A stretch of 64,000 nt of DNA from a bacterium (GCA_023664305.1 JAMPFT010000012.1:350-64349), one strand, 5' to 3'. Numbered from the stretch's first letter, positions 2,240 through 11,015 are shown. Numbers and translations are program-made. The notes: generated by a model not told the origin, from the letters alone.

Positions 2240-5200
2240 TTAGGAGCCGTCCGGGGCGTAAAGAGCTTTTAGGCGCTTCAGATAGCGGTAGCGTTCCTTT
2301 GCATGGCGCGCGGCCTCCTGAAACAGCCGCTGCGCCTGCTCGGGACGGTACTGGCGCAGGGAGTCGTAGCGAACCTCCCCGTCCAGGAAATCCTGATACT
2401 CAAGCGTGGGTTCCTTACTGTCGAGAATAAAAGGATTTTTTCCCTGCTTTTTTAAAAGCGGATTGAAGCGGAACAGATGAAAGTATCCGGCGTCAACCGC
2501 TTTTTTCATTTCATGGGCGGAGGAGCCCAGTCCTGCCCTGACGCCGTGGGCGATACAGGTGGCGTAGGCGATGACCAGCGAAGGGCCGTCGTAGGCGGCG
2601 GCCTCCGAGAGAGCTTTGACGGTCTGGTTATAGTCCGCGCCGAAGGCGATCTGCGCCACATAGACGTTGCCGTAGGTCATTGCCATGGAGGCAAGATCCT
2701 TTTTGCGGCTCTCCTTGCCGCCGGTGAGGAATTTGGCGGTGGAGCCCATGGGGGTAGCCTTGGACACCTGGCCGCCCGTGTTGGAATAAACCTCTGTGTC
2801 GAGAACCAACAGATTGATGTTTTTCCCGGTGGAGAGCACATGATCCAGTCCCCCGAAGCCGATGTCGTAGCCCCAGCCGTCGCCGCCGATGACCCAGTAA
2901 GTCATCGGGGAGCGGAGGGCTTCTCCGGCCAGCAGCATCCCCAGACCGAACTCGGCGGCGTCCTCAAAAAGGGAATTGGACCAGGCGGGACCATGGCCCT
3001 TCCCGTCCAGACAGTATGCGCAGGAGGGGGAGGAATTGGCCCAGATGGAGCTGCAGCCCGTGGCGTTTGCGATATACATATGAGGACCGAACAGTTGAGT
3101 CAACAGTTTGACATAGGGCGTTTCCCCGCAGCCCGCGCATGCGCCGGAAAATTCCAGATAGGGGCGGAGAAACTGGCTTCCCTTGACGGTGGACGGGCCG
3201 AAGCGCTGCGCCGCCTCCCGGTTTGGCAGGAGGGGCTTTGCAAAGTCAAAGCATTGCTGGGCGGCGGTGTCATGCGTGATTCCGGCGGCAGGCGTATTCC
3301 CTTGCGCCGGTCTCATTATGAGCGCCTTTTTTCCCTGTCTGCCGGGACAGTTGGCGGCGCAGGAGCCGCATCCCGTGCAGTCCGTCGGAGAGATGACGAT
3401 GGAGAAAAAGCGGTTGTCCAGTCCGGTCATGGGAAGACTTTTCATGCCATCGGGAGCGAGGGCGAGCTGTTCCGGATCCGTGACGGCGGGGCGGATCACG
3501 GCGTGGGGGCAGACAAAGGAGCAGCGGTTGCACTGAATACAGTTTTCCGGAATCCACTCCGGCAGCTCCGTGGCCACATTCCGCCGTTCGTGGGCGCAGC
3601 TCCCCGGCGGAGTATAACCGTCCGCGTAGGGGAGAAAGGCGGAGACAGGCAGCCGGTCGCCGCGCCGGTCGGTGACGGGCTGTTGGATTTTGCGGACATA
3701 ATTTAGCAGCTCGGGGCGGTCCGGCAGAGGGGTGTTATCCAGGGAATCGCGCAGAGGCGCCTTGCTATCCTGCGGAAGGCTTTGGCCGCGAGGGAAAGAA
3801 TGTGAGGTGCTCTCTGAAATGCTTTGAAAATTTTCCCTGTCCGGGAGAAAACAGGCCGTGTCCTGCGAAGGATTTCCCCGGGACAGGCCGACCGGAAGCT
3901 CCTGCACCTCCGAAAATCCGCGCTCGATGGCTTCTTCATTCATGCGGATTATTTTTTCGCCGTTTTTGCCATAGCTTTTTCGGGCGGCTGCCTTCATCAG
4001 CTCCTGTACCTGATCTGCGGGGAGAAGCCCGGATACCGCGAAGAACGCCGCCTGGAGGACGGTGCTGATTTTATTGTTCAGGCCGGTTTCCTTGCCGATC
4101 TTTAAGGCGTCGATCACAAAGAAGCGGATGTGATGAGACGCCGCATAGTTTAAGGCTGCCGCGGGCAGATAGTCTTCGGCGTTATCGCCGCGGTAAGGGC
4201 TGTTCAGAAGAAAGGTGCCGTTGTCCTTCAATTCCTGCACCATCTCATATTTGTGGAGATAAACCGGATTGTGACAGGCGACCAAGTCTGCACGGTAAAT
4301 CAGGTAGGCGCTGCGGATCGGGCTTTTTCCGAAACGCAGGTGGGAGACGGTCAGCCCTCTGGATTTTTTGGAATCGTACTCAAAATATCCCTGTGTGTTC
4401 AGGTCGGTCTGTGTACCGATGATTTTGAGGGCGTTTTTCGTGGCGCTGACGGTGCCGTCGCCGCCCAGTCCCCAGAATTTGCACGCGACGATGTCTTCCG
4501 GAGCGGTCTGAACCGGTTCCGTCTCAGGCAGGGACAGACAGGTGACGTCGTCGGTGATTCCCAGGGTGAAGAAAGGCTTCTCACAGTTTTCGTAAACCGC
4601 GGCGATCTGGGCGGGGGTGGTATCCTTGGAGCCGAGACCGTACCGCCCGGAGAAGACCTGTACCGCCGGAAGCGAGGGTCGGCCGGGCTGATCCTGCGCC
4701 TTAATCCAATCTGCGGACTGGGGCAGCCCGTCCCGGGATTTGTCCTGCGCTTTGCTCCGATCTGCGGACTGGGGCAGTCCGTTCCGGGATTTGTCCTGTG
4801 CCTTGGTCCGGTCTGTGGACTGGGACAGCCCGGCCTGAGATTTGTCCTGTGCTTTGCTCCGAGCTGCGGATTGGGGCAGCCAGTCCCGGGATTTGTCCTG
4901 CGCTTTGCTCCGGTCTGCGGACTGCGGCAGTTCGTCCCGGGATTTGTCCTGTGCCTCGATCTGATCTGCGGGATGCGGCTGCAGCAATCCTCCCTGTCCC
5001 AGAGCGGACACCACGTCCAGATAAAGCGGCTCTCCGGGCGCGCCCGGCTCCCCGGTGCGGTCCAGCACGGTAATCGTACGCACAGAGCCGGGAAGCTTTT
5101 TTAGAAAGTGTTTTACGCTGAAAGGGCGGTACAGATGAACGGCCAGAAGACCGTATTTTTTGTCCTGCGCGTATGCCAGATATTCGCGGACGGTCTCGCA

Positions 5201-6043
5201 GACGCTGCCCATGGCTACAATGACATGTTCGGCGTCCGGCGCGCCGCAGTAATCGAAAAGGCCGTATTGTGTGCCGGACAGAGCGTTGATCCGGTCAAGC
5301 GTTTCCTCCACGATTCCGGGGAGCCGGAGATAGACGGGGTTGGAGGCTTCCCGGTTCTGGAAGAAAATGTCGGGATTTTGCGCGGAGCCGTAGACTCTGC
5401 CGTGGTGGGGATGGAGAGAGCGGCGGCGGAAGGCCTCCAGCGCCTCAGGATCCAGGAGAGAGCGGAGGCTTTCGTCGTCCCATACCTGTATTTTCTGCAG
5501 TTCGTGGGAGGTGCGGAAGCCGTCAAAGAAGCTGAGAAAGGGAACGCTGCCCTTCAGGGCGGCCAGATGGGAGACCGGCGACAGATCCATTACCTCCTGC
5601 ACGCTTCCGCAGGCAAAGATGGCGGCCCCTGTCTGGCGGCAGGCGTAGATATCGGAATGATCGCCGAAGATGGAAAGCGCGTGAGTCGCCACTGCCCGCG
5701 CCGCCACATGGATGACGCAGGGCAGCAGCTCTCCCGCCATCCGGTAGAGGTTGGGTATCATAAGCAGCAGGCCCTGAGAGGAAGTAAAGGTTACGGCCAG
5801 CGCGCCGGACAGCGCCGCGCCGTGTATTGTGCCGGCCGCGCCTGCCTCGGACTGCATCTGGATGACCTTCATGGGCCTGCCGTACAGATTTTCCTTTCCT
5901 TCAGCTGCCCACTGCCCGCACAGCTCCGCCATGGGGGAGGACGGGGTGATCGGATAGATGGCCGCGGCCTCGCTGAAGGCGTAGGCGATATGTGCGGCGG
6001 CAGCGTTGCCGTCCATGATTTGGGTAATGCGTTTTTTCTGCAT
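2240..6043 (-). CDS. nifJ: pyruvate:ferredoxin (flavodoxin) oxidoreductase
   Basis: YPITPSSPM, SEAGAAG, DGFRTSHE, FWGLGGDGTV, two CxxCxxCxxxCP motifs, GACAGCGETPY, GGDGWGYDIG; ATG 6043 with GGAGG RBS. Confidence 0.95.
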   Translation of the reverse strand: MQKKRITQIMDGNAAAAHIAYAFSEAAAIYPITPSSPMAELCGQWAAEGKENLYGRPMKVIQMQSEAGAAGTIHGAALSGALAVTFTSSQGLLLMIPNLYRMAGELLPCVIHVAARAVATHALSIFGDHSDIYACRQTGAAIFACGSVQEVMDLSPVSHLAALKGSVPFLSFFDGFRTSHELQKIQVWDDESLRSLLDPEALEAFRRRSLHPHHGRVYGSAQNPDIFFQNREASNPVYLRLPGIVEETLDRINALSGTQYGLFDYCGAPDAEHVIVAMGSVCETVREYLAYAQDKKYGLLAVHLYRPFSVKHFLKKLPGSVRTITVLDRTGEPGAPGEPLYLDVVSALGQGGLLQPHPADQIEAQDKSRDELPQSADRSKAQDKSRDWLPQSAARSKAQDKSQAGLSQSTDRTKAQDKSRNGLPQSADRSKAQDKSRDGLPQSADWIKAQDQPGRPSLPAVQVFSGRYGLGSKDTTPAQIAAVYENCEKPFFTLGITDDVTCLSLPETEPVQTAPEDIVACKFWGLGGDGTVSATKNALKIIGTQTDLNTQGYFEYDSKKSRGLTVSHLRFGKSPIRSAYLIYRADLVACHNPVYLHKYEMVQELKDNGTFLLNSPYRGDNAEDYLPAAALNYAASHHIRFFVIDALKIGKETGLNNKISTVLQAAFFAVSGLLPADQVQELMKAAARKSYGKNGEKIIRMNEEAIERGFSEVQELPVGLSRGNPSQDTACFLPDRENFQSISESTSHSFPRGQSLPQDSKAPLRDSLDNTPLPDRPELLNYVRKIQQPVTDRRGDRLPVSAFLPYADGYTPPGSCAHERRNVATELPEWIPENCIQCNRCSFVCPHAVIRPAVTDPEQLALAPDGMKSLPMTGLDNRFFSIVISPTDCTGCGSCAANCPGRQGKKALIMRPAQGNTPAAGITHDTAAQQCFDFAKPLLPNREAAQRFGPSTVKGSQFLRPYLEFSGACAGCGETPYVKLLTQLFGPHMYIANATGCSSIWANSSPSCAYCLDGKGHGPAWSNSLFEDAAEFGLGMLLAGEALRSPMTYWVIGGDGWGYDIGFGGLDHVLSTGKNINLLVLDTEVYSNTGGQVSKATPMGSTAKFLTGGKESRKKDLASMAMTYGNVYVAQIAFGADYNQTVKALSEAAAYDGPSLVIAYATCIAHGVRAGLGSSAHEMKKAVDAGYFHLFRFNPLLKKQGKNPFILDSKEPTLEYQDFLDGEVRYDSLRQYRPEQAQRLFQEAARHAKERYRYLKRLKALYAPDGS
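4692..4970 (-). repeat. 51-bp (17-aa) in-frame tandem repeat, ~5.5 copies, inside nifJ
   Basis: Units start 4692, 4743, 4794, 4845, 4896; encode PQSADRSKAQDKSRDxL variants. Confidence 0.95.
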
Positions 6044-6112
6044 AAAAACACCTCCGGGGTCAAACAAGTATTGAATACCAGTTTTCCGCGGAGGGGCTTT
6101 TTTTATACGAGC

Positions 6113-6266
6113 ATTACATCATCTTAACTCGCAAACCTGCGCTTTCAGCGCTTTATCGCCTGCTTCGCAGGCTGTTTGCTCACTATATGACATAGGGAAA
6201 TCTTTGATTTCCCTGAAAAATCAAATGTCTGCTTCGCAGCCGCTTGATTTTCCTCTGCGTTCATTA
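6113..6266 (-). repeat. dispersed intergenic repeat element (long form); short form at 41867-41950
   Basis: Ends match 41867-41950; internal 11-bp direct repeat ctgcttcgcag at 6160 and 6229; palindrome agggaaatc-ttt-gatttccct. Confidence 0.85.
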
Positions 6267-7181
6267 TTTCAGGAAACCGTTGACAATCTGCGCCTCGGCC
6301 TCCTCCTCGGTGAGTCCCAGGGTCATGAGCTTCGTGATCTGCTCGCCTGCGATCTTGCCGATGGCGGCCTCGTGGATCAGCTCCGCGTCCAGATCGTTGG
6401 CGGTGATTTCCGGGATGGCGCTGATTTTGGCGCGGTCCATGATAATCCCGTCGCATTCGGAGTGGCCCGCGCAGCGGTTATTGCCGTTGATGCGGGATAA
6501 AAACAGCTGGGTGGAATCGTCCCTTGCCACAGAGCGGGAGATAATGTTTGCGCTGGAGCCTGCGCCGTCCAGGTCTACCTGGAAGGAGGTCTCCGCTCGC
6601 TGGGAGCCGTGGGTCATGAGCTTTTCCGTCACGATGATTTTGGCGCCGTCCGCAAGCTTTGCCCGGGTGGAGCGTTTGGTGGAATCGACGCCCCTGATCT
6701 GGACGGTTTCCATCTCCAGAAAGCTGTTTTCCCCCAGCTCTACGACGGTCTGAGGGTTCATGATCCGGCTGCCCTTGCCGTCTCCGCTGCCGTAATGCTT
6801 TTCCACATATCTGACATGAGAGTTTCTGCCTATGTAGAAGGTATGGATCCCGTCGTGCCTGCTGTCCGCGTCTCCGCCGTTGTGGATGCCGCAGCCCGCG
6901 ACGATGGTGACATCACAGTCGTCGCCCACATAAAAATCGTTATAGACCATTTCGGTCAATCCGCTCTGGCTTAAGACCACCGGGATGTGTACGCTTTCCT
7001 TTTTTGTGCCGGGCTTTATGACGATGTCGATGCCCTGCCTGTCGTTCTTTGTGACAATGTCGATGTGAGCGGTGGTGGAGCGGTCCACACTCTGACCGTT
7101 GGCGCGGATGTTATAGGCTCCGGCAGGCATTTCATGCAGGCCCGCCACCTGCTCCAGCAGATTTTTCTGTATTGCGTCCAT
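6264..7181 (-). CDS. SufB/SufD family Fe-S cluster assembly protein
   Basis: IVAGCGIHN, SRSVARD, GHSECDGIIMD, ELIHEAAIGKIAGEQITKLMTLGL; start MDAIQK at 7181 with GGAG RBS. Confidence 0.85.
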   Translation of the reverse strand: MDAIQKNLLEQVAGLHEMPAGAYNIRANGQSVDRSTTAHIDIVTKNDRQGIDIVIKPGTKKESVHIPVVLSQSGLTEMVYNDFYVGDDCDVTIVAGCGIHNGGDADSRHDGIHTFYIGRNSHVRYVEKHYGSGDGKGSRIMNPQTVVELGENSFLEMETVQIRGVDSTKRSTRAKLADGAKIIVTEKLMTHGSQRAETSFQVDLDGAGSSANIISRSVARDDSTQLFLSRINGNNRCAGHSECDGIIMDRAKISAIPEITANDLDAELIHEAAIGKIAGEQITKLMTLGLTEEEAEAQIVNGFLK

Positions 7182-7305
7182 AGGAATCTCCGTTCTGCCG
7201 CCTTCATAGGACGGCCTGAAAGTATGAAAGTAACCTTTCATGCTATTGAATTTGAGCCTGCCACCGGCAGGCATGGGTATCAGTGTGTAAAAAATTCCAG
7301 GCGGC

Positions 7306-7376
7306 CAAGAGGGTGCGTAGCACACCTCGCAAGAGGGGGTGTAGCCCACCTCGCAAGAGGGGGTGTAGCCCACCTC
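7306..7376. repeat. 24-bp tandem repeat (2 full copies plus flanking partials)
   Basis: cacctcgcaagagggggtgtagcc at 7323 and 7347, cacctc at 7371, degenerate copy at 7306. Confidence 0.9.
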
Positions 7377-7548
7377 TTTAGTACGCCCGCCAGGAATTTC
7401 CAAGTTACACAAGTTGCTAAAGCGATTCTTCTCGGAATCGATAGATTCCGTAGAACCGAATGGTTCCGTGGGATTGTCGGGTCAAAACGGTCGGCATTCT
7501 TCCGGAAGGGCAGAACCCTCTGCCTGAAAAACGCGGATATTCCGTATA

Positions 7549-8588: not shown

Positions 8589-8625
8589 ATTTTGTGTTGC
8601 AGGAAATGCTGTGACAAGACAGGAT

Positions 8626-8699
8626 GTGTGTTTAGCTCAGCTGGATAGAGCGTTTGGCTACGGACCAAAAGGTCGGGGGTTCGAATCCTCTAACACACG
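8626..8699 (+). tRNA. tRNA-Arg(ACG)
   Basis: Acceptor gtgtgtt/aacacac, anticodon arm ttggctACGgaccaa, TTCGAAT T-loop. Confidence 0.97.
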
Positions 8700-8830
8700 T
8701 TGCGTTTAGGACGGCGGGAAGCCTTTAAGGTAGGCATTCCCGCCATTTCTTTTGTCTCTTTTCTTCATGGCTTTTACAAACGGACGGCAGAGGAAAAACT
8801 GTAACTTTGCTATGGCAGTCAGTTTGCGAA
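8695..8830 (+). repeat. direct repeat copy 1 (tRNA 3' end, terminator and downstream sequence)
   Basis: Near-identical to 9838-9974; period 1143 bp. Confidence 0.92.
8713..8760 (+). terminator. intrinsic terminator after tRNA-Arg
   Basis: ggcgggaa...ttcccgcc stem followed by atttcttttgtctctttt. Confidence 0.75.
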
Positions 8831-8903
8831 ATTTAAGATAGGTATGGTAAAACGACAGAAAAAATGATATACTGAGTGTGGAGAGGCAGGAAAGGAAGTG
8901 TTT

Positions 8904-9782
8904 ATGGAGGATACCAGAATACAATGGCATTCCGGCTTTGTGTCGGCCATGGATCTGGAGCTGAGGCAGTATAGGGATTCCCTGATATTTGAGCGGGAGT
9001 ATAATCTGAATACAAAACCGTTGGAGATAGATTTGCTGGTGATCAAAAAGAAGCCGTCTACTCAGATTTCCAATGAGATCGGAAGGTTTTTCAGGGGACA
9101 TAATGTCATGGAGTACAAGTCGCCGGAGGATCGCCTGGATATAGACACGTTCTACAAGGTTGGGGCATACGCCAGCCTTTACAAGGCGTATGGCAGGACG
9201 GTAGATGCGGTAAAGGCCGATGATGTGACGGTGTCTATCCTCCGGGAGACAAAGCCGGAGGCGCTTTTCGGATATTTTAAGTCACACGGCTTTACGGTGA
9301 CGAACCCGTTCCGCGGGATATATTATGTGCAAAGCGGAGTCCTGTTTCCGACCCAGATTGTGGTCACGAGGGAGCTGGATAAAGCGGGACACAGTTGGCT
9401 GAGGTTTCTGTCGAACCGCCTGGAGAAGCAGGATGTAGTAGAGATGCTGGAAAACATCGGGCGACTGTCGGAGAAGAGAGACCAGGAGCTTGCGGATTCT
9501 GTCCTGAAGGTAAGCGCGGAAGCGAACAGGCAGGTTGTGAATGAATTGATAGGAGGCAATACTATGTATGAAGCGTTATTGGAGTTTATGGAGCCGCAAA
9601 AAAAGTTGTGGAAAAAGGAAGGGTTAGATGAGGGGATTCAGGGAGCCGTTGATACGCTGAGAGATTTCGGCCATGAAGAGGAAGAAATCAAGACGGCAAT
9701 TATGAAGAGATATGATTTATCCGAGGAGGAAGCGGAAAACTATCTGGGGGTAAGGGGTTCCGGGCAAAAGGTTACAGTATGA
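8904..9782 (+). CDS. PD-(D/E)XK nuclease-like protein (Rpn/PDDEXK_2-like)
   Basis: EIDLLVIKK...NVMEYKS motif; Rpn-like C-terminus EGLDEGIQGAVDTL...YDLSEEEAENYL; alternative GTG start 8898; extended -10 TGaTATACT at 8865-8873. Confidence 0.7.
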   Translation: MEDTRIQWHSGFVSAMDLELRQYRDSLIFEREYNLNTKPLEIDLLVIKKKPSTQISNEIGRFFRGHNVMEYKSPEDRLDIDTFYKVGAYASLYKAYGRTVDAVKADDVTVSILRETKPEALFGYFKSHGFTVTNPFRGIYYVQSGVLFPTQIVVTRELDKAGHSWLRFLSNRLEKQDVVEMLENIGRLSEKRDQELADSVLKVSAEANRQVVNELIGGNTMYEALLEFMEPQKKLWKKEGLDEGIQGAVDTLRDFGHEEEEIKTAIMKRYDLSEEEAENYLGVRGSGQKVTV

Positions 9783-9837
9783 ACGATTGCAGGTAACAAA
9801 TGGTTATCAGTGTGTGGGAAACGCTTTAAGCAGAGTT

Positions 9838-9974
9838 ACACGTTGTTTTATGAGTGGCGGGAAAGCCTTTAAGATAGGAGTTCCCGCCATTTCTTTTGTC
9901 TCTTTTCTTCATGGCTTTTATAAACGGACGGCAGAGGAAAAACTGTAACTTTGCTATGGCGGTTAATTTGCGAA
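9838..9974 (+). repeat. direct repeat copy 2
   Basis: acacgttg...ggcgggaaagcctttaag...ttcccgccatttcttttgtctcttttcttcatggctttta...aactgtaactttgctatggc matches 8695-8830. Confidence 0.92.
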
Positions 9975-9991
9975 CCTCTTTTTGATGAATA

Positions 9992-10020
9992 TTGACTTTG
10001 CCGGACAAAGCCAGTATAAT
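9992..10020 (+). promoter_or_regulatory. SigA promoter, probably giving a leaderless transcript
   Basis: TTGACT-17bp-TATAAT, ATG 8 nt downstream, no SD. Confidence 0.8.
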
Positions 10021-10853: not shown

Positions 10854-11015
10854 ATGGACAACAATAAGTACAATAACGCAAACAATTCCGAGAACTGCAA
10901 GAACAGCAGCCAGAACAACAGTCAGAACCAGAACAACAACCAGAAGAACAATCAGAACAATAACCAGAGCCAGAACAGCAGCCAGAACAACAACCAGAAG
11001 AATAACAACTACTAA
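10854..11015 (+). CDS. 53-aa Asn/Gln-rich small protein (absent from ORF track)
   Basis: AGGAGGT at 10840-10846, ATG 10854, TAA 11013-11015; MDNNKYNNANNSENCKNSSQNNSQNQNNNQKNNQNNNQSQNSSQNNNQKNNNY; followed by terminator-like hairpin. Confidence 0.8.
   Translation: MDNNKYNNANNSENCKNSSQNNSQNQNNNQKNNQNNNQSQNSSQNNNQKNNNY

Follow-up and report, generated by a model that had tools for sequence, protein, structure and literature searches.

A conserved Shine-Dalgarno sequence and start codon inside a PD-(D/E)XK-like nuclease gene family of Lachnospiraceae suggest an Rpn-type two-product module

We analyzed a 64,000-nucleotide (nt) stretch of DNA from a bacterium (GCA_023664305.1, JAMPFT010000012.1:350-64349; hereafter the window), in which a gene at 8904-9782 on the + strand encodes a 292-amino-acid (aa) protein, L, that resembles PD-(D/E)XK nucleases. 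Inside this gene lie an in-frame Shine-Dalgarno (SD) sequence and a start codon, from which the last 72 residues of L could be made as a separate protein, S. The SD and the start codon are under nucleotide-level selection throughout the gene family, and S has the anatomy of, and homology to, RpnS, the small product of the Rpn L/S phage-defence genes of E. coli, in which the antitoxin lies inside the toxin gene (Zhong et al. 2023, PMC10400941). Judging from this conservation, ribosomes very likely use the internal start. We consider it probable, with real room for doubt, that 8904-9782 is an Rpn-type module yielding two products from one gene and, by analogy with Rpn, just as probable that S is the cognate inhibitor of a toxic nuclease L. 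That the module acts in phage defence is, on the same analogy, somewhat less probable.

The gene contains the following features.

8890 to 8898, + strand: main-start SD of L (GAAAGGAAG), anti-SD duplex of -8.5 kcal/mol
8904 to 9782, + strand: open reading frame (ORF) of L, a 292-aa PD-(D/E)XK-like nuclease with the C-terminal S module, from the ORF list
9030 to 9119, + strand: predicted catalytic core, D43 (9030-9032), E70 (9111-9113) and K72 (9117-9119), from alignment and an AlphaFold2 (AF2) model
9551 to 9556, + strand: internal SD, AGGAGG, in codons Ile216-Gly217-Gly218, duplex of -10.2 kcal/mol in the window gene
9564 to 9566, + strand: internal start codon, Met221 of L and Met1 of S, conserved across the sets of coding sequences (CDS)
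9564 to 9782, + strand: ORF of S, a 72-aa acidic product and candidate intragenic antitoxin, from the ORF, AF2 and database ORFs
9615 to 9644, + strand: zone of 4-aa repeats, about 2 units (KEGL-DEGI-QG), within the long helix 1 of S, from comparison with homologues
9678 to 9746, + strand: helices 2-3 of S, helix-turn-helix (HTH)-like (EEEIKTAIMKRYDLSEEEAENY), from AF2 models and hhalign to RpnA

Conservation of the internal Shine-Dalgarno sequence and start codon

An earlier note, made from the sequence alone, had pointed to AGGAGG 7 nt ahead of an in-frame ATG, and its coordinates were exact: the sequence reads AGGAGG at 9551-9556, a spacer of caatact (7 nt), and then ATG at 9564-9566. This ATG shares the frame of the ORF, which could open at 8898 or 8904 (9564-8904 = 660 = 3 x 220). 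We assigned the start of L to ATG 8904 and not to GTG 8898, because the homologues begin with M[KENS][DE]TK[IV]QWH. The motifs QWH, EIDLLVIK and EYKS that the note had listed were all located in L, at residues 7-9, 41-48 and 70-73, respectively. The internal product proved to be 72 aa long and acidic, as the note had described it; it begins with MYEALLEFMEPQKK, ends with EEEAENYLGVRGSGQKVTV, and has a mass of 8.3 kDa and an isoelectric point of 4.63, with 17 D+E against 10 K+R. By chance, 3.9 +/- 1.9 copies of the pattern AGGAGG-N5-9-ATG would be expected in the window, which contains 17. Since about four such sites would arise by chance, a single intragenic site is no proof by itself; the comparison with homologues that follows, on the other hand, rules out coincidence.

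The family available for comparison is large. More than 1,323 close homologues of L, mostly from Lachnospiraceae, are present in a 90%-clustered database, and the family comprises 3,583 clusters at 50% identity; the members listed are all unnamed or "hypothetical". Four sets were compared: 69 distinct CDS from 80 fetched genome loci, among them the window gene, to whose product the others are 53-66% identical; 78 cluster representatives, at 31-58% identity to that product; a distant set of 41 sequences (alignment A6), about 35% identical to the set's own reference sequence; and 32 metagenome CDS, for which the DNA was taken from 80 loci.

Conservation of SD and ATG across homologues, which had been proposed as a check on the site, held in the 69 genome and the 32 metagenome CDS. 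Of the genome CDS, 65 have ATG and 4 have GTG at the aligned internal start, whereas the 32 distant metagenome CDS all have ATG, each with an upstream SD pairing at -8 to -12 kcal/mol. At the protein level, the column holds Met in 71 and Val in 3 of the 78 cluster representatives. In A6 the internal Met is one of just 13 invariant columns, the others including M1, H10, E33, D44, N68, E71 and K73. The start codon and the SD thus occur together at optimal spacing in 101 of 101 genes, with GTG as the sole substitution at the DNA level.

We scored the pairing of the 15 nt upstream of every codon with the anti-SD sequence in the 69 CDS, and the internal-start column ranked first of 276 codon columns. 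Its mean was -8.9 kcal/mol and its worst sequence still reached -7.3 kcal/mol, compared with a mean of -3.4 kcal/mol (standard deviation 1.7) over all columns. No comparable SD signal was found at the other conserved Met columns (16, 226 and 229); those 5 and 8 codons downstream of the internal start, at -2.5 and -4.2 kcal/mol, have no SD. Compared with the main-start SD of the same gene, the internal SD forms the tighter duplex in 68 of 102 genes (-9.5 against -8.1 kcal/mol).

Codon choice in the SD points the same way. The codon for Gly217 is GGA in 64 of 68 sequences, compared with 43% GGA overall and 12-56% at five other conserved Gly columns, and the codon for Ile216 is ATA in 21 of 21, against a background of 41%. 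The residue ahead of Gly217 may be I, M, R or K, yet the third base of its codon is a purine in every case. Codons 215-218 have third positions that are 93-97% fixed or purine-only, a figure that drops to 35-70% nearby. The SD is retained as GGAGA or GGAGG in 101 homologues through differing amino-acid codings, which are given here by subfamily.

Ile-Gly-Gly: ataGGAGGc
x-Gly-Asp: GGAGAt
Lys-Glu-Asp: aAGGAGGat
Val-Arg-Arg-Thr: gtAAGGAGGact
Ile-Arg-Arg-Asp: atcAGGAGGgat
Asn-Gly-Gly-Thr (aatGGAGGg): aatGGAGGgaca

Because the subfamilies write the SD with different amino acids, selection acts on the RNA. An SD motif that outlives the change of its encoded peptide is the strongest in silico evidence for a ribosome-binding site. 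In E. coli rpnA, the internal SD AAGGAG is formed by the codons for Lys240-Glu241, 6 nt ahead of ATG244, and this internal start has been proven experimentally (Zhong et al. 2023, PMC10400941).

The small product, the nuclease domain and their relation to Rpn

The AF2 model of S alone (predicted local distance difference test score, pLDDT, 75) has one long helix followed by two short ones, at residues 3-34, 39-50 and 54-61, and the model of L (pLDDT 76) places the corresponding C-terminal helices at residues 223-254, 259-270 and 274-281. RpnAS is a three-helix bundle that dimerizes via its long first helix, and the Rpn proteins carry 4-aa repeats, each of one hydrophobic residue with charged residues or Gly, 8-20 residues past the Met and in a number that varies between strains (Zhong et al. 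2023, PMC10400941). In the present family such repeats start about 18 residues past the internal Met. The units include EGRK, EGIK, EGLK, QGLE, QGMQ and EVTK/EVTR, among others, and are present in 0 to about 9 copies. Near-identical genes, for example those at loci L099, L100, L112, L116 and L134, differ essentially in unit number alone. Protein lengths accordingly form ladders with 4-aa steps (281/285/289/293/297/301/305 and 305/309/313/317/321/325/329), S ranges from 59 to 114 aa across the family, and paralogues within one genome differ in repeat type or number.

When the C-terminal profile of the family was aligned with the RpnA C-terminus by hhalign, the probability was 95.7% (E 9.6e-9, 54 columns), and helices 2-3 of S were paired with RpnA "...GVPLADIMRFTGLSEEEL". 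The whole-protein profile aligned collinearly with that of RpnA (168-293 with 175-302) at a probability of 64.6% and an E of 6.2e-5. The Rpn model TIGR01784 gave sub-threshold matches in 24 of the 78 members, with a best E of 3.4e-5; all scores were under the curated cutoff (23.8 against 52.1 bits), the window protein itself gave no TIGR01784 match, and in the three members checked the matches covered model positions 150-273 of 273, which is the C-terminal part only. The repeats also attract matches to FliH and Yae1_N, which are GxxxG-repeat families. The C-terminal alignments extend beyond the repeats into the HTH-like end. Taken together, these profile comparisons indicate that the C-terminal half is homologous to the C-termini of Rpn proteins.

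The N-terminal domain has the layout of a PD-(D/E)XK nuclease. Neither the 78-sequence alignment nor the 41-sequence distant set shows any substitution at D43, E70 or K72. In the AF2 model strand 2 opens with D43, strand 3 contains E70-x-K72 and is followed by a helix, and the order of the core (helix-strand-strand-strand-helix-strand) is PD-(D/E)XK-like. Support for the fold is weak: Foldseek listed EndoMS, with a probability of 0.87, and XisH for the L model; with the whole-L model against PDB and BFVD there was no significant match, and the weak ones were of the PD-(D/E)XK type. Among family members, one matched PDDEXK_4 (5.9e-5). Neither L nor S of the window found a meaningful match in Pfam, NCBIfam or PADLOC; PF04754 and PF12784 matched nothing in sets of 36 and 78 relatives; and PDB sequence searches with L, A1 and A7 returned nothing relevant, PDB holding RpnAS (7th0) and no full-length Rpn. 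By eye, and without statistical support, the domain shares with RpnA an N-terminal His, a D, the sequence E-x-K/Q-S-x-x-D and an aromatic-rich helix.

These features suggest the following mechanism. In L, a nuclease of the PD-(D/E)XK type (D43, E70-x-K72) would be followed by a helical linker and a module of three helices at the C-terminus, and ribosomes would also initiate at ATG 9564 to make this module alone as the 72-aa acidic S. S would probably pair with the identical C-terminus of L via the first helix, a long one whose extent the 4-aa repeats determine, and would keep the nuclease inactive, acting as a dominant-negative antitoxin. The type and number of the repeats would make each S specific to its own L, so that paralogues in one genome would be insulated from each other. 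Release of L, for example upon phage infection, would then result in cutting of DNA. We infer the synthesis of S, its binding to and inhibition of L, and the toxicity of L by analogy with Rpn.

Gene copies, locus context and alternative explanations

S also occurs on its own. At locus L019, a 75-aa S ORF lies 1.4 kb downstream of a full-length gene, and nucleotide homology between the two runs from 20 nt ahead of the internal ATG, with the SD included, to the stop codon; the S copy has 4 fewer repeat units than the full gene. The full gene and the S copy are separated by a pair of genes with no known function (242 aa and 176 aa, at 4079-5346 of this locus). The end of the second of these overlaps the S ORF, so that the two are probably co-transcribed. 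A search with the S profile returned 209 proteins; among the 120 listed, lengths were 54-124 aa and many start exactly at the internal Met. Three further S-only ORFs on long contigs, L162 2501-2689, L164 2501-2722 and L165 2501-2710, have an intact SD and S ORF and have lost the nuclease core. We considered them as orphan antitoxins and rejected this, as all three are 5'-truncated remnants with linker-coding sequence retained upstream, leaving L019 as the clean case. Toxin-antitoxin (TA) or restriction-modification genes are neighbours of the remnants: Gp49/HTH_37 with PHD_like, a C5 methylase with Vsr, and a nucleotidyltransferase with HEPN. At L035, L046, L054 and L065 (also L022 and L064), two or three family genes follow one another in tandem and in one orientation, and some of these copies are truncated. 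One genome assembly supplied up to 5 of the fetched loci.

The S-only copies and tandem arrays, found as for rpn genes, bear out the rpn-like gene design that the earlier note had suggested, and its likening of S to the Rpn small product agrees with the three helices and with the variable 4-aa repeats about 18 residues past the Met. The label "Rpn-family" stands for the design and for the C-terminal module (hhalign 95.7%); it is not supported for the nuclease domain, which the Rpn models do not see.

Several observations weigh against an Rpn-type module. The nuclease domain matches no Rpn model (PF04754, the N-terminal part of TIGR01784, PADLOC), and hhalign did not match the N-domains of the family and of RpnA (probability 0.1%), a weak negative given an Rpn profile with an effective sequence number (Neff) of about 2. 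The family has E-Y-K (E-x-K) at the active site where RpnA has E-x-Q; the catalytic motif of RpnA is E82-H-Q84, and since the RpnA Q84K mutant is inactive, the biochemistry of the family may differ. For the small product, RpnAS (7th0) was absent among the 50 Foldseek matches listed for the S model, and the hhalign score of the C-terminus owes part to low-complexity EG repeats. The S-only remnants at L162, L164 and L165 are weak support, because decay would also yield them. At the locus, the neighbours of the window gene are housekeeping genes with no defence island, and an internal promoter could not be shown. The metatranscriptome runs with a homologue of the window gene (L049) gave contigs of flat depth that probably contain DNA, with no information on start sites.

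The nuclease domain, then, is very diverged or possibly independent and hence missed by present models. It could belong to a PD-(D/E)XK lineage of its own, marked by E-x-K and QWH, that gained an RpnS-type cassette; we regard this as rather doubtful. If true, the cassette, composed of internal SD and ATG, 4-aa-repeat dimerization helix and HTH-like end, would be a portable, self-insulating "antitoxin-in-cis" module able to tame varied toxic enzymes, and searches with the cassette alone could reveal further unannotated families.

It is also conceivable that the internal start is real and that S is a helper of L: a required subunit, a specificity or DNA-binding factor, or an HTH-like transcriptional autoregulator. 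The conserved SD and start imply that S is made and are silent on its role. Helices 2-3 of S resemble HTH DNA-binding domains, the top matches in Foldseek of the S model, none of them significant, and Cas11d, made from an internal start in cas10d, has been cited as a complementary case (Zhong et al. 2023, PMC10400941). However, inhibition of RpnL by its own RpnS, the homologous module, has been demonstrated (Zhong et al. 2023, PMC10400941), the variation in repeat number and the paralogue-specific repeats fit cognate pairing and insulation, and the persistence of S-only remnants without the nuclease would make little sense for a pure cofactor. A helper role for S is therefore unlikely in our judgment.

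The surroundings of the window gene bear on a third explanation, that the gene belongs to a mobile or recombination element in which S limits the element's own recombination as a trans-dominant inhibitor, in the manner of the Tn5 inhibitor, and not to a defence toxin-antitoxin. Three features flank the gene.

8693 to 8835, + strand: upstream copy of the bracketing direct repeat (3' end of tRNA-Arg and a terminator hairpin), from repeat search and alignment
8865 to 8873, + strand: possible extended -10 element TGaTATACT for the full-length mRNA, inferred from reading the sequence
9838 to 9980, + strand: downstream copy of the bracketing direct repeat, from repeat search and alignment

The repeat is about 140 nt in full, and its core (8716-8830 and 9860-9974) is 115 nt long and 93% identical at a spacing of 1144 nt. 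The upstream copy starts at the last bases of tRNA-Arg(ACG) at 8625-8700, and weaker similarity runs on to the promoters. TGaTATACT lies in the diverged end of the upstream copy, where it aligns with the TATAAT of the next gene's promoter (TTGACT-17-TATAAT, 9992-10020), which follows the downstream copy; it has a poor -35 and was not reported by the promoter scan. It looks as if a copy of the intergenic region either received the window gene as an insertion or was duplicated together with it.

In public sequencing run X2, a 710-nt contig joins 9921 back to 8778, from the 3' part of the gene through the repeat to its 5' part, which could represent another copy in tandem, a circle of 1144 nt or an assembly that ran across the repeat. 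In run X3 a short join of 8702 to 9851 might be the empty site in another strain. We rejected both joins as evidence of excision or of an empty site: the runs (X1-X3) are of mixed organisms, and both joins traverse the repeat and are indistinguishable from assembler artefacts. A mobile element would agree with a multicopy family with tandem arrays, with a direct repeat bracketing the window gene beside a tRNA gene, with the contig joining 9921 back to 8778, and with similar flanking repeats at some other loci. Those repeats, however, were found at only 5 of 92 other loci tested (L003, L004, L046, L133 and L159), with differing ends, inverted repeats were not found, no integrase is nearby, and the contig may have been joined by assembly across the repeat. 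The flanking repeats are also consistent with the tandem-duplication dynamics described for rpn genes. We consider a mobile element quite improbable.

Finally, it is very unlikely that no small protein is made, with the Met kept for the helix core and the purine stretch serving as an SD-like pause site at the domain boundary or as another RNA element: the RNA runs gave no start-site information, the two Met residues 5 and 8 codons downstream are fairly conserved, and the SD is partly base-paired in the predicted local fold of the window mRNA, but start codon and SD keep their optimal spacing in every gene (101/101, GTG being the sole substitution), the SD survives changes in its encoded amino acids, the downstream Met columns have no SD (-2.5 and -4.2 kcal/mol), the duplicated unit at L019 starts 20 nt ahead of the internal ATG, and the homologous rpnA site is a proven start (Zhong et al. 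2023, PMC10400941).

None of the RNA runs contains the window gene. A -10-like motif, TAYTAT, lies 245 nt (-245/-243) upstream of the internal ATG in 37-40 of the 69 genes. We rejected it as a promoter element, because it is encoded by a conserved Gly-Ile-Tyr-Tyr and Tyr140 shows no bias for TAT.

The window holds other repeats. In a gene on the - strand at 2240-6067, similar to pyruvate:ferredoxin oxidoreductase, an in-frame 51-nt tandem repeat at 4705-4971 (5.2 copies, 81% matching) encodes 17-aa units (KAQDKSRDxLPQSADRS) inserted in the enzyme. A 53-aa ORF at 10854-11015 consists almost entirely of Asn, Gln, Ser and Lys and lies on a 12/30/42-nt tandem repeat (10898-11006). The 5' end of a long ORF at 6264-7412 (- strand) carries a 24-nt tandem repeat (7306-7376; 3 copies, 93% matching), which is probably upstream of the true start of that gene.

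Significance and comparison with known systems

Rpn L/S is the founding example of an antitoxin encoded within its toxin gene, and a commentary by Koonin raised the generality of this principle (PMC10400984). An Rpn-type module at 8904-9782 would extend the design to a very large family of gut Lachnospiraceae, often with several copies per genome, which Pfam, NCBIfam and PADLOC missed among the members scanned (the window protein and up to 78 relatives). Surveys of defence and TA systems in gut Clostridia would then count too few such genes, and annotation would have overlooked a second product in thousands of genes. Hosts of the family in culture include Lachnospiraceae bacterium A4, Parablautia intestinalis and Otoolea muris DSM 111138. 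The natural repeat variants, together with the E-x-K active sites, could serve in studying how repeat number sets the specificity between L and S.

Dominant-negative short forms made from internal starts are known elsewhere, for example from Tn5, in which an in-frame internal start in the transposase gene gives a shorter protein, the inhibitor, that shares the oligomerization surface and poisons the full-length enzyme. The Tn5 inhibitor loses the N-terminus and keeps the catalytic domain, whereas S is the C-terminal tail only, and both fold and biology differ.

The reference systems in E. coli are RpnA-E and the plasmid-encoded RpnP2, each with L and S products, of the PF04754 YhgA-like family (Zhong et al. 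2023, PMC10400941; Kingston et al. 2017, PMC5350276). The family described here is like them in encoding a protein of about 290 aa with an N-terminal PD-(D/E)XK-type domain, a helical linker and a C-terminal three-helix module, in having an in-frame internal SD and ATG directly ahead of the long helix, and in its 4-aa repeats of variable number past the Met, S-only copies, tandem arrays and multicopy genomes. Some subfamilies even code the SD identically to rpnA, as Lys-Glu AAGGAG. In contrast, the nuclease domain of the family is detected neither by PF04754 nor by hhalign, E-Y-K and QWHxxF stand where Rpn has E-H-Q and PHDxxFK, S is 59-114 aa long compared with 49 aa for RpnAS, and the hosts are Lachnospiraceae.

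Stand-alone RpnS genes (rpnCSs, YpaA/RpnESs, DUF4351 PF14261) have a counterpart in the free-standing S at L019, with its different repeat number. Unlike them, the family members scanned did not match PF14261, and the three other S-only ORFs are 5'-truncated remnants. The Rpn proteins of Firmicutes (TIGR01784/PDDEXK_2, for example rpn of Clostridioides difficile) are similar to the family in belonging to Gram-positive gut Clostridia and in carrying 4-aa repeats, and TIGR01784 is the sole named Rpn-family model that members of the family touch, below its cutoff. The internal start of C. difficile rpn yields RpnS when the gene is expressed in E. coli (Zhong et al. 2023, PMC10400941).

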